From the NCBI RefSeq assembly GCF_000026545.1, contig NC_011601.1: 64,000 nucleotides of DNA, one strand, 5' to 3'. Each line of letters begins with the position of its first letter. The stretch's first letter is position 1. Origin of the DNA: Escherichia coli O127:H6 str. E2348/69. Its GTDB lineage: Bacteria; Pseudomonadota; Gammaproteobacteria; Enterobacterales; Enterobacteriaceae. Positions 37,831-43,602 of the stretch are shown one piece after another. Under the pieces are notes generated by a model that was not told the DNA's origin, ran no database searches, and worked only from the letters and a program-made list of their open reading frames with translations. The position numbers and the translations under genes are program-made.

Positions 37831-38269
37831 GATACCCTTCAAACGATATCTACCTTCACCCCGTAAAAGATAAGTTTGGCAGCACATTTGCCCTATCTAC
37901 TCATTTTTCCTGCAACAGGTTGAAATCTCAACACGGTCAGAAAACGCTGATGACTAAACAGCCCTGGGCCGGGCGATGTAACCATCACACACAATCCTGA
38001 TCGCGAAATATGGCGTGACTTGATACTTCACTCCACAATGCTTTCCTTGATGAATTCGCAGGCCCGTGATACACGGGACAGGTCGCTGAATTACGACAAT
38101 GCCCTGGAAATCAGCGAGCCGTGTATCCAGAGTACATTTGAGCGACTGTACCAGAACATGAATGAGGCGTTTGGATTAGGCGATTATTAGCAGGGCTAAG
38201 CATTTTGGTATTATTATTTTCCGGTTGAGGGATATAGAGCTATCGACAACAACCGGAAAAAGTTTACGT

Positions 38270-39517
38270 TTATATTGCTGAAGGTACTGGCGTTTCCATC
38301 ACTATTTGCTCACGTTTTTTACTCAGGAAGAAAATGCCAAATAGCAACATCAGGCAGACAATACCCGAAATTGCGAAAAAAACCGTCTGGTAGCCTGCGT
38401 GGTCAAAGAGTATCCCAGTCGGCGTTGAAAGCAGCACAATCCCCAACGAACTGGCAATTTGAAAACCAATCAGAAAGATCGTCGACGACAGGCGCTTATC
38501 AAAATTTGCCACGCTGTATTTGAAGACGGATATGACACAAAGTGGAACCTCAATGGCATGTAACAGCTTCACTAATGAAATAATCCAGGGGTTAACGAAT
38601 AGCGCGCAGGAAAGGATACGCAACGCCATAATCACAACACCGATAAGTAATGCATTTTTTGGCCCTACCCGATTCACAAAGAAAGGAATAATCGCCATGC
38701 ACAGCGCTTCGAGTACCACCTGGAATGAGTTGAGATAACCATACAGGCGCGTTCCTACATCGTGTGATTCGAATAAACCTGCATAAAAGACAGGAAAGAG
38801 TTGTTGATCAAAAATGTTATAGAAAGACCACGTCCCCACAATAAATATGACGAAAACCCAGAAGTTTCGATCCTTGAAAACTGCGATAAAATCCTCTTTT
38901 TTTACCCCTCCCGCATCCGCCGCTATGCACTGGTGATCCTTATCTTTAAAACGCATGTTGATCATCATAAATACAGCGCCAAATAGCGAGACCAACCAGA
39001 AGTTGATATGGGGACTGATACTAAAAAATATACCGGCAAAGAACGCGCCAATAGCATAGCCAAAAGATCCCCAGGCGCGCGCTGTTCCATATTCGAAATG
39101 AAAATTTCGCGCCATTTTTTCGGTGAAGCTGTCAAGCAAACCGCATCCCGCCAGATACCCCAGGCCAAAAAAGAGCGCCCCCAGAATTAGACCTGCAGAA
39201 AAATTGCTTTGCAGTAACGGTTCATAAACGTAAATCATAAACGGTCCGGTCAAGACCAGAATGAAACTCATACACCAGATGAGCGGTTTCTTCAGACCGA
39301 GTTTATCCTGAACGATGCCGTAGAACATCATAAATAGAATGCTGGTAAACTGGTTGACCGAATAAAGTGTACCTAATTCCGTCCCTGTTAATCCTAGATG
39401 TCCTTTCAGCCAAATAGCGTATAATGACCACCACAGCGACCAGGAAATAAAAAAGAGAAATGAGTAACTGGATGCAAAACGATAGTACGCATTTCTGAAT
39501 GGAATATTCAGTGCCAT
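38270..39517 (-). CDS. cscB: Sucrose:H+ symporter CscB
   Basis: 12-TM MFS permease translation recognised as CscB. Confidence 0.9.
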   Translation of the reverse strand: MALNIPFRNAYYRFASSYSFLFFISWSLWWSLYAIWLKGHLGLTGTELGTLYSVNQFTSILFMMFYGIVQDKLGLKKPLIWCMSFILVLTGPFMIYVYEPLLQSNFSAGLILGALFFGLGYLAGCGLLDSFTEKMARNFHFEYGTARAWGSFGYAIGAFFAGIFFSISPHINFWLVSLFGAVFMMINMRFKDKDHQCIAADAGGVKKEDFIAVFKDRNFWVFVIFIVGTWSFYNIFDQQLFPVFYAGLFESHDVGTRLYGYLNSFQVVLEALCMAIIPFFVNRVGPKNALLIGVVIMALRILSCALFVNPWIISLVKLLHAIEVPLCVISVFKYSVANFDKRLSSTIFLIGFQIASSLGIVLLSTPTGILFDHAGYQTVFFAISGIVCLMLLFGIFFLSKKREQIVMETPVPSAI

Positions 39518-39578
39518 AATTACCTGCCTGTCGTTAAAAAATTCATGTCCTATTTAGAGATAAGAGCGGCCTCGCCGT

Positions 39579-40502
39579 TTACTTCTCACTTTCCAGTTCT
39601 TGTCGACATGGCAGCGCTGTCATTGCCCCTTTCGCTGTTACTGCAAGCGCTCCGCAACGTTGAGCGAGATCGATAATTCGTCGCATTTCTCTCTCATCTG
39701 TAGATAACCCCGTAGAGGACAGACCTGTGAGTAACCCGGCAACGAACGCATCTCCCGCCCCCGTGCTATCGACACAATTCACAGACATTCCAGCAAAATG
39801 GTGAACTTGTCCTCGATAACAGACCACCACCCCTTCTGCACCTTTAGTCACCAACAGCATGGCGATCTCATACTCTTTTGCCAGGGCGCATATATCCCGA
39901 TCGTTCTGTGTTTTTCCACTGATAAGTCGCCATTCTTCTTCCGAGAGCTTGACGACATCCGCCAGTTGTAGCGCCTGCCGCAAACACAAGCGGAGCAAAT
40001 GCTCGTCTTGCCATAGATCTTCACGAATATTGGGATCGAAGCTGACAAAACCTCCGGCATGCCGGAGCGCCGTCATCGCAGTAAATGCGCTGGTACGCGA
40101 AGGCTCGGCAGACAACGCAATTGAACAGAGATGTAACCATTCGCCATGTCGCCAGCAGGGCAAGTCTGTCGTCTCTAAAAAAAGATCGGCACTGGGGCGG
40201 ACCATAAACGTAAATGAACGTTCTCCTTGATCGTTCAGATCGACAAGCACCGTGGATGTCCGGTGCCATTCATCTTGCTTCAGATACGTGATATCGACAC
40301 CCTCAGTTAGCAGCGTTCTTTGCATTAACGCACCAAAAGGATCATCACCGACCCGACCTATAAACCCACTTGTTCCGCCTAATCTGGCGATTCCCACCGC
40401 AACGTTAGCTGGCGCACCGCCAGGACAAGGCAGTAGCCGCCCGTCTGATTCTGGCAAGAGATCTACGACCGCATCCCCTAAAACCCACACTTTGGCTGAC
40501 AT
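39579..40502 (-). CDS. cscK: Fructokinase CscK
   Basis: Ribokinase-family translation recognised as CscK. Confidence 0.9.
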   Translation of the reverse strand: MSAKVWVLGDAVVDLLPESDGRLLPCPGGAPANVAVGIARLGGTSGFIGRVGDDPFGALMQRTLLTEGVDITYLKQDEWHRTSTVLVDLNDQGERSFTFMVRPSADLFLETTDLPCWRHGEWLHLCSIALSAEPSRTSAFTAMTALRHAGGFVSFDPNIREDLWQDEHLLRLCLRQALQLADVVKLSEEEWRLISGKTQNDRDICALAKEYEIAMLLVTKGAEGVVVCYRGQVHHFAGMSVNCVDSTGAGDAFVAGLLTGLSSTGLSTDEREMRRIIDLAQRCGALAVTAKGAMTALPCRQELESEK

Positions 40503-40717
40503 TTTTTTCCCTTAAATTCATCTGACTTACGCATAGTGATAAACCTCTTTTTCGCAAAATCGTCATGGATTTACTAAAACATGCATATTCGATCACAAAA
40601 CGTCATAGTTAACGTTAACATTTGTGATATTCATCGCATTTATGAAAGTAAGGGACTTTATTTTTATAAAAGTTAACGTTAACAATTCACCAAATTTGCT
40701 TAACCAGGATGATAAAA

Positions 40718-42151: not shown

Positions 42152-42158
42152 CATAATA

Positions 42159-43154
42159 TCAGGTGGAACAACGGATCAACAGCGGGCAAGGGATCCGCGT
42201 CACTCTTCCCCCTTCACGATCTTCAATAATATGCAATGCAGCTTCCCGCCCGATAATGTCATGTGGAAGCTGAATTGTGGTCAGCGGCGGTAAAAACAGA
42301 TGCCCGACGCCAACCAGATTATCAAAGCCCATTACGGCGACATCCTGCGGGATACGTACCCCCTTCGCCAGGAGAACCTGATAAGCGACAAAGGCTGCGC
42401 GATCGTTACCACATATCAGAACATCAAAATCTGGTTTGCCCGATTTGAAGTGGGCATTGAGTAAACTTGCGAGATCGGTGTAGTGATCATCACCTGTTGC
42501 CATGTGAAATTGTTTCACCTCAGCCAGATCTCGTCCAGCATCACGCCAGGCCTGCTCAAATCCCTGCCGACGATACCCTGTTGCCAACGCACTTTCCGGT
42601 AGCCAGAAGCATAACGGTTGACGATAGCCCGCCGCGAGCAAATGCTGTGTTGATTCATATTGTGCAGTGTAATCATCAGGGATATAACTGGGTAACGCTG
42701 GGTCATCCGCCACACAGTTCGCCAATACAATATTTTCACCATACAGAGACTCAGGCAGCGTGATATGTCGCAGCCCCATTGTAGTATAGATAATGCCATC
42801 CGGACGGTGGGCTAGCAGCTGACGTGCCGCGCGGGCAGCGTCATCTTCAGAAAAAATATTGATTAAAAAACTATTCCAGCCGAACTCGCTGGCGGTTTGC
42901 TCAATGGCAAGCAGAATATCAACAGAGAAAGGAGTGGTAGCAGTGTCCTGTGCCAGCACGGCGAGAGTCGACGGCTTACGTCCTTGAGCGCGCATTTTAC
43001 GGGCGGAAAGATCAGGAACATAATTCAGGGTCTGGATTGCCTGCAATACGCGGTCACGCGTTGCAGGACGCACAGATTCTGCATTATGCATCACCCGGGA
43101 GACTGTCATCATCGACACTCCCGCCAGGCGTGCGACATCCTTTAATGAAGCCAT
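42159..43154 (-). CDS. cscR: Sucrose operon repressor CscR (LacI family)
   Basis: LacI-type HTH at N-terminus from MASLKDVARLAGVS; ORF-track upstream extension rejected. Confidence 0.85.
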   Translation of the reverse strand: MASLKDVARLAGVSMMTVSRVMHNAESVRPATRDRVLQAIQTLNYVPDLSARKMRAQGRKPSTLAVLAQDTATTPFSVDILLAIEQTASEFGWNSFLINIFSEDDAARAARQLLAHRPDGIIYTTMGLRHITLPESLYGENIVLANCVADDPALPSYIPDDYTAQYESTQHLLAAGYRQPLCFWLPESALATGYRRQGFEQAWRDAGRDLAEVKQFHMATGDDHYTDLASLLNAHFKSGKPDFDVLICGNDRAAFVAYQVLLAKGVRIPQDVAVMGFDNLVGVGHLFLPPLTTIQLPHDIIGREAALHIIEDREGGRVTRIPCPLLIRCST

Positions 43155-43383
43155 ACCCAAGCCGTTTGCCGTAAAACGGGCACTGTAGCAGAAACAGACG
43201 TCACTGGCGAGATCCAACGATATTCTCGACGCCCTATCACCCGACACGGCAATACAATAAAAAGTAACAATAATTCGCGGACAATTGTACCCAATTTCGC
43301 CTCTGTTCTCGCCAACGAGTCACCATGTAGGCAAGTAGGTAAAACATGCCAACCTGGAGAAGAAGATATAAATATGGATCATT

Positions 43384-43602
43384 GTGCTGCCGCTGTATCC
43401 CGACATCAGCCCGGAAATTATTGCGATTGCTATCGGTTCCGGTGCGATTGGCTGCACGATCGTTACGGACTCGCTTTTCTGGCTGGTGAAGCAATATTGC
43501 GGCGCTACGCTCAATGAAACATTTAAATACTATACGACAGCGACATTTATCGCTTCGGTCGTCGCTCTGGCGGGCACATTCCTGCTGTCATTTATCATCT
43601 AA
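43384..43602 (+). pseudogene. dsdX: dsdX 3' remnant (D-serine permease C-terminal fragment)
   Basis: Encodes C-terminal TM segments matching DsdX; 5' portion replaced by csc island. Confidence 0.7.

Follow-up and report, generated by a model that had tools for sequence, protein, structure and literature searches.

In the csc sucrose regulon of Escherichia coli, sucrose enters the cell together with protons through the symporter CscB and is hydrolyzed in the cytoplasm by CscA; of the resulting glucose and fructose, the latter is phosphorylated by CscK. The divergent promoters of cscKB and cscA are repressed by CscR and activated by cyclic AMP (cAMP) with its receptor protein (CRP). The scr phosphotransferase system (PTS) regulon of pUR400 and Klebsiella also serves sucrose use and shares with csc a GH32 hydrolase, a fructokinase and a LacI-family repressor. 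Here, we analyzed a 64,000-nucleotide stretch (the window) of E. coli O127:H6 str. E2348/69 (contig NC_011601.1), in which an earlier note made from the sequence alone had placed a csc sucrose-utilization island at positions 37831–43602, in place of dsdC and the 5' part of dsdX and next to a prophage. We assign this segment, with a probability of about 0.96, to the chromosomal, non-PTS csc sucrose regulon at its standard E. coli site, running from the 3' end of the tRNA gene argW to codon 374 of dsdX; every defining feature of the regulon that can be tested in sequence was present. The exchange of dsdCX for csc is an already known, ordinary and documented feature: cscRAKB has been described in place of dsdC and part of dsdX, at the hot spot argW, in O157:H7, E. 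coli W and most strains positive for the locus of enterocyte effacement (LEE) (PMC4366372, PMC7486766, PMC3032704). To this record, the analysis adds base-exact junctions, a DUF4942 fossil, a putative operator pair, reduced synonymous divergence across the block and a nearly strain-specific dsdA frameshift.

The csc regulon of EC3132 and E. coli W shares with E2348/69 the four genes, their order and orientation and a site bounded by argW and a truncated dsdX. Differences from these csc genes are allelic only, with E2348/69 about 98–99% identical to the alleles compared (RUT3575 and O157), a CscK of 307 rather than 304 residues and a 13-bp deletion in the cscR–dsdX' spacer; in addition, a prophage of ~43 kb parts argW from the block in E2348/69, and dsdA is frameshifted. 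The enterohemorrhagic E. coli (EHEC) O157:H7 locus, z3622-cscB-cscK-cscA-cscR-dsdX'-dsdA, is identical in architecture and junctions and has likewise lost dsdC and the 5' part of dsdX (PMC4366372, PMC7486766). Its dsdA is intact but silent (PMC7486766), whereas that of E2348/69 is frameshifted, and the argW-linked prophages of the two differ. In K-12 and in uropathogenic E. coli (UPEC) CFT073, dsdCXA occupies the same site with the same flanks, argW on the left (with a CPS-53-type element in K-12) and dsdA-emrYK-evgAS on the right; relative to these strains, E2348/69 lacks dsdC, retains 72 codons of dsdX and has a frameshifted dsdA, and the locus is non-functional. Unlike the scr regulon, csc of E2348/69 is chromosomal, takes up sucrose through a LacY-family symporter and is not found on true plasmids. 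An scr PTS regulon was rejected as an identity for the block, which has neither the PTS enzyme II ScrA nor the porin ScrY and in which the LacY-family CscB is the sole transporter.

Junctions of the block and its relation to the prophage

Junctions were set by DNA alignment to K-12 MG1655 and by tblastn with K-12 protein translations, and the RefSeq annotation of the E2348/69 record served as an independent reading. Positions 37400–45200 were 100% identical to three E2348/69 records, and window positions equal LT827011.1 positions minus 2,551,213. On the left, K-12 identity (the right end of CPS-53, torI and the argW 3' copy, pawZ) was near base-for-base up to 37830 and then ceased. It restarted at 43384/43385, inside dsdX, at codon 374. 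The features at the two junctions are as follows:

37542–37742, plus strand: torI-type excisionase gene, the last prophage gene, outside the csc block (RefSeq; near-identical to the right end of K-12 CPS-53)
37816–37830, plus strand: attR core CTGCAGGGGACACCA, a 15-nt copy of the 3' end of the tRNA-Arg gene argW and the equivalent of K-12 pawZ (alignment with argW of E2348/69 and RUT3575)
37831–37971, no strand: non-coding left flank of the csc block, directly 3' of argW in prophage-free csc-positive strains
43155–43383, no strand: spacer from the cscR start to the dsdX remnant, presumed cscR promoter region and right end of the insert
43384–43602, plus strand: dsdX remnant of 219 nt, the last 72 codons (374–445), without a start or promoter of its own

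The attR core forms the left junction of the block, at 37830/37831; a 17-nt pattern containing it matched once in the window, against 0 matches expected by chance. The inserted block measures ~5.55 kb (37831–43383/43384) and stands in place of ~2.37 kb of K-12 DNA, namely a 95-bp spacer, dsdC, the dsdC–dsdX spacer and 1,119 nt of dsdX. Of K-12 DsdX, tblastn recovered residues 374–445 only, at 43384–43599 (98.6%). The 72-residue open reading frame (ORF) was placed by the NCBIfam DsdX model at positions 374–445 of 445, and RefSeq labels the 219-nt remnant as a pseudogene, 'DsdX, missing N-terminus'. Across the 64-kb window, tblastn gave no match to K-12 DsdC at E ≤ 1e-3 and no further dsdX sequence beyond these residues.

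The substitution described in the earlier note, csc for dsdC and 5' dsdX beside the prophage, is borne out by the K-12 alignments with their break at 37830 and restart at 43384/43385, by tblastn and by attR at 37816–37830. The start it gave, 37831, is exact, as the attR core ends at 37830; the end it gave, 43602, is that of the dsdX remnant, but the insert proper ends at 43383/43384. On the C-terminal dsdX fragment at 43384–43602, tblastn, NCBIfam and RefSeq all agree. An intact dsdC or dsdX elsewhere, which the note had named as the observation that would contradict it, was not found by tblastn in the 64-kb window. The note did not mention the frameshift in the adjacent dsdA.

The prophage at argW is lambdoid, ~43 kb long and of the intS/torI type, with its attR at 37816–37830 and its intS and attL outside the window. 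The true argW and the adjacent intS lie ~5.5 kb before the window start, and the attR core CTGCAGGGGACACCA is identical to the 3' end of this argW. Since csc begins immediately beside attR, and argW is a known integration hot spot, the csc genes could be pictured as prophage cargo, carried as a moron or by specialized transduction and arriving together with the phage. RUT3575 speaks against such a joint arrival: it has no prophage at argW, its tRNA ends at locus position 7000 with the csc left flank starting at 7001, and the bases after CCA are identical to those of the E2348/69 window, so that the layout beyond 37830 is the same as that following argW itself. Moreover, O157:H7 has a different argW element with the same csc block, and ~2,620 genomes carry the block. 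The prophage-free csc-positive genome RUT3575 led us to rule out prophage cargo, to which we attach practically no probability. Because an identical csc left edge directly follows argW in a prophage-free strain, prophage and csc block are independent events. The 'compound island' of the earlier note therefore holds insofar as attR and csc adjoin but not as the product of a single event.

Two prophage tRNA genes, tRNA-Thr(TGT) and tRNA-Asn(GTT) (19987–20142, minus strand), lie between the Q antiterminator/HNH gene and the lysis genes. These two were the only matches in an Rfam scan of the whole window at gathering thresholds, and the csc region was blank. At the other end of the window, positions 45052–64000 hold ordinary K-12-like backbone (emrYK, evgAS, yfdE-yfdV-oxc-frc, yfdX, ypdI, yfdY, lpxP, ypdK, alaC and ypdA), in the annotation of which nothing unusual was noticed.

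Genes and control region of the csc block

The block contains the four csc genes, their control region and, on the left, a decayed gene fragment:

37972–38190 (RefSeq coding sequence 37984–38190), plus strand: decayed internal fragment of a DUF4942 gene, the z3622-type ORF of O157
38217–38260, minus strand: hairpin with an 11-bp stem, immediately after the cscB stop codon (RNA fold)
38270–39517, minus strand: cscB, sucrose:H+ symporter of the LacY family, 415 residues, intact
39579–40502, minus strand: cscK, PfkB-family fructokinase, 307 residues, intact
40503–40717, no strand: bidirectional cscKB/cscA control region, 215 bp
40607–40620 and 40671–40684: two identical 14-bp palindromes AGTTAACGTTAACA, putative CscR operators
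40623–40638: CRP-like site TGTGATATTCATCGCA, matching 9 of 10 consensus positions
40718–42151, plus strand: cscA, cytoplasmic GH32 invertase (sucrose hydrolase), 477 residues, intact
42159–43154, minus strand: cscR, LacI-family repressor of the csc genes, 331 residues, intact

CscB matched Pfam PF01306 (LacY_symp) at 644 bits and TIGR00882 at 593.8 bits (cut-off 220), and in loci ~98% identical overall RefSeq names its counterpart 'sucrose MFS transporter' (MFS, major facilitator superfamily). Its residues L51, C327, Q353, L363 and F371, at which mutations permitting growth of E. coli W on low sucrose have been reported (PMC3938415), are wild type. CscK reached 505.9 bits with the fructokinase equivalog NF006957 (cut-off 450) and also matched Pfam PfkB. 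The cscK gene lies 61 bp upstream of cscB on the same strand, and the two are predicted to be co-transcribed. A 1-bp indel near 39590, at the 3' end of cscK, alters the C-terminus and yields 307 residues instead of the 304 in RUT3575 and O157. CscA combined Pfam Glyco_hydro_32N and 32C with a TIGR01322 score of 478 bits (cut-off 356.4) and has all of the catalytic motifs WMNDPNG, RDP and ECP. CscR, encoded downstream of cscA and convergent with it, has LacI helix-turn-helix and Peripla_BP_1 domains in Pfam. Among the NCBIfam models, none specific to CscR exceeded its cut-off with the 331-residue protein, and the name was taken from RefSeq, which gives 'sucrose operon repressor CscR' in the ~98% identical loci. 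The ORFs and the Pfam and NCBIfam matches reproduce the divergent cscB-cscK/cscA/cscR layout given previously.

Whether these genes still confer a phenotype bears on a further reading, in which the cluster is cryptic or decaying like dsdA and gives no growth on sucrose. Both neighbors, dsdA and the DUF4942 fragment, are pseudogenes, cscB has become a pseudogene with an internal stop in other csc-positive genomes such as RUT3575, and the CscK C-terminus is changed. In E2348/69, however, all four ORFs are full length and free of internal stops, the catalytic motifs are in place and the family scores exceed curated cut-offs. The ratio of nonsynonymous to synonymous divergence (dN/dS) of ~0.1 in the csc genes indicates purifying selection. 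A preprint describes propagation of E2348/69 on 2% sucrose and transfer of the phenotype with its cscBKA, which supported growth on sucrose when cloned in pUC or when integrated in DH5alpha (bioRxiv 10.1101/2024.12.20.629655). We regard a cryptic cluster as very improbable and retain the reading of an intact csc regulon.

The csc promoter has been described as bidirectional, with operator sites for cscA and cscKB and two cAMP–CRP sites (PMC3938415), and the palindromes and CRP-like site of the cscK–cscA spacer in E2348/69 fit this layout. The 12-nt core of the palindromes, GTTAACGTTAAC, has no other copies in the window, and CscR would presumably exert repression through the two identical palindromes within the 215-bp spacer. 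The hairpin downstream of cscB folds at −17.3 kcal/mol (z = −3.4 versus shuffles); it lacks a trailing U-run and was not among the calls of the terminator scan. It is possibly a terminator or a transcript-stabilizing element, though not a canonical intrinsic terminator.

Distribution, divergence and origin of the block

The whole csc locus was found at ≥80% coverage in 2,645 of the 5,426 complete E. coli genomes compared, a csc-positive share of ~48%. When the 439-bp left flank was taken by itself, it was recovered from 2,641 genomes (2,623 at ≥80% coverage), from the chromosome every time. This flank (37831–37971 plus the DUF4942 fragment) was seen solely with csc and therefore is a fixed part of the csc block. 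Positions 37831–38269 are no empty spacer but hold the DUF4942 fragment, which refines the earlier description. In a plasmid collection, csc was matched at full length in four records, all of 0.37–4.9 Mb and not ordinary plasmids; two of these, at the chromosome-like size of 4.8–4.9 Mb, are probably mislabeled. The other plasmid matches listed were distant GH32 genes with ~73% identity over 17% of the query. As no ordinary plasmid carried full-length csc, a plasmid origin of the genes was ruled out.

A location between argW and truncated dsdX, beside dsdA, was found in E2348/69 and also in O157:H7 and RUT3575. In O157:H7 ATCC 43890, another argW element precedes the same order, DUF4942'-cscB-cscK-cscA-cscR, 219-nt dsdX remnant and dsdA; O55:H7 USDA5905 has the order of O157:H7 including the 219-nt remnant, and RUT3575 has the remnant as well. 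Primers for the gene ends of E. coli W matched the E2348/69 csc genes with 0–2 mismatches, and the operon-flanking primers fell at 38094–38115 (DUF4942 remnant) and 43640–43660 (dsdA) with 1 mismatch each, so the flanks in E. coli W are the same as in E2348/69. The earlier note had appealed to a known placement of csc at argW–dsdA and to csc-positive strains for comparison; O157:H7 ATCC 43890, the E. coli W primers and the literature (PMC4366372, PMC7486766, PMC3032704) all corroborate it. In the E2348/69 cscR–dsdX' spacer, near 43347, a 13-bp stretch of RUT3575 and O157 is absent. In the annotation of RUT3575, cscB (locus 7442–8689) is a pseudogene interrupted by an internal stop, and carriage of the island is no guarantee of a sucrose-positive phenotype in every strain.

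Divergence was compared between E2348/69, which the literature assigns to phylogroup B2, and RUT3575 or O157. Nucleotide identity was 98.2–99.1% in the csc genes, about 93–94% in the non-functional left flank and 95.5% in dsdA. Synonymous divergence (dS) was 0.03–0.06 for cscB, cscK, cscA and cscR, 0.055–0.075 for the dsdX remnant and 0.18–0.20 for dsdA, which places the csc block roughly 4-fold below its neighbor. The switch lies near position 43700 and suggests a recombination boundary there. The lower dS would be in keeping with a more recent cross-lineage ancestor of the csc block than of the adjacent backbone and hence with spread by homologous recombination, although neither step is decisive. 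That strains of different phylogroups share identical junctions points to a single ancestral origin of the csc replacement.

Nothing was found that contradicts this account of a regulated csc block spread by recombination, although several of its parts are predictions. Binding of CscR to AGTTAACGTTAACA and of CRP to TGTGATATTCATCGCA, like the csc promoters themselves, is predicted from the sequence. A simple sigma-70 scan called no promoter in the cscK–cscA spacer, with fewer promoter-like sites than in shuffles (4 versus 10.1). The dS contrast comes from two comparison genomes only, and it could in part stem from an unusually high diversity of dsdA rather than from the youth of csc.

The DUF4942 fragment offers a clue to where the block came from. 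It matched Pfam PF13708 at 39.6 bits (cut-off 25) over profile positions 3–62 of 190 and shares roughly 74–78% DNA identity with full-length DUF4942 genes at other E. coli loci. Its counterpart in BL21 is nt 244–445 of an 846-nt gene that ends a selC-linked CP4-type island (cbtA-DUF5983-DUF957-DUF4942, then backbone), and the fragment is likely the distal-end remnant of a CP4-type tRNA-linked island. Such a fragment within the block, DUF4942 being typical of the ends of these islands, and a left edge exactly at the tRNA 3' end would both be expected if csc were a self-mobile integrative island, site-specific at argW. However, positions 37831–43383 contain no integrase or excisionase (intS belongs to the prophage), and the argW 3' end, which matched only once in the window, is not repeated at the right junction. 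This junction instead falls within a gene that it truncates, as is characteristic of a deletion or an illegitimate event, and the block is absent from true plasmids. With no integrase and no second att repeat, a self-mobile island was rejected and is in our view highly unlikely; the block is at most the fossil of one.

Under the csc replacement reading, csc may have been the distal cargo of a CP4-type argW island that decayed to the internal DUF4942 fragment, and the fossil block may then have spread by homologous recombination, which would explain its lower synonymous age compared to dsdA. The replacement would have occurred once in an ancestor, at the cost of dsdC and codons 1–373 of dsdX, and homologous recombination in the flanking backbone would then have carried the block from one E. 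coli lineage to another. The ~43-kb prophage would have entered argW later, so that the csc block now begins right after attR.

Loss of dsdA and the exchange of D-serine for sucrose

To the right of the dsdX remnant, the remaining dsd gene is also damaged:

43620–44944, plus strand: dsdA pseudogene, with a 4-bp deletion at ~44735–44742 and an ORF that ends at 44819

Alignment with K-12 and RUT3575 revealed that (TGGC)3 in dsdA has become (TGGC)2, which shifts the frame after residue ~376; tblastn split DsdA over two frames, and RefSeq flags the gene as 'frameshifted'. The complete genomes were searched with a 42-nt probe that spans the deletion and with which intact alleles cannot seed a match. 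The deletion allele was detected in 4 of 5,426 genomes, the three E2348/69 records and O55:H7 USDA5905 only, the latter also having its dsdA flagged as frameshifted. Because O55:H7 USDA5905 carries the O157-type csc allele, slippage in dsdA has happened at least two independent times, and the (TGGC)3 tract may be a recurrent slippage site that hits an already silent dsdA. That csc is former cargo of a decayed CP4-type argW island and the tract such a recurrent site, both together, is a tentative proposal that we consider somewhat unlikely to hold in full.

A functional dsdCXA system is not present in the window, as dsdC is missing, dsdX is limited to residues 374–445 and dsdA is frameshifted. 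E2348/69 does not grow on D-serine unless dsdA is supplied in trans (PMC4366372). In EHEC, deletions around cscR can reactivate the silent but intact dsdA by placing it under the cscA or z3622 promoters (PMC7486766); reactivation of this type in E2348/69 would also need reversion of the frameshift. Transfer of sucrose genes into K-12 abolishes D-serine use, a classical finding as cited at second hand in PMC3032704 and PMC4366372, and the low csc divergence, read as recombination, agrees with it.

With the activator lost, the transporter truncated and dsdA bearing a 4-bp frameshift, the D-serine system is dead, and the strain would thus be sucrose-using but unable to detoxify or catabolize D-serine. 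The exchange of dsdCX for csc is a classic metabolic trade at a recombination hot spot, in which sucrose use is gained and D-serine detoxification is lost. Published work has tied this csc/dsd trade to the niche restriction of LEE-positive E. coli, since the type III secretion system is subject to repression by D-serine. E2348/69 has the entire dsd system inactivated at the genetic level, dsdA included.

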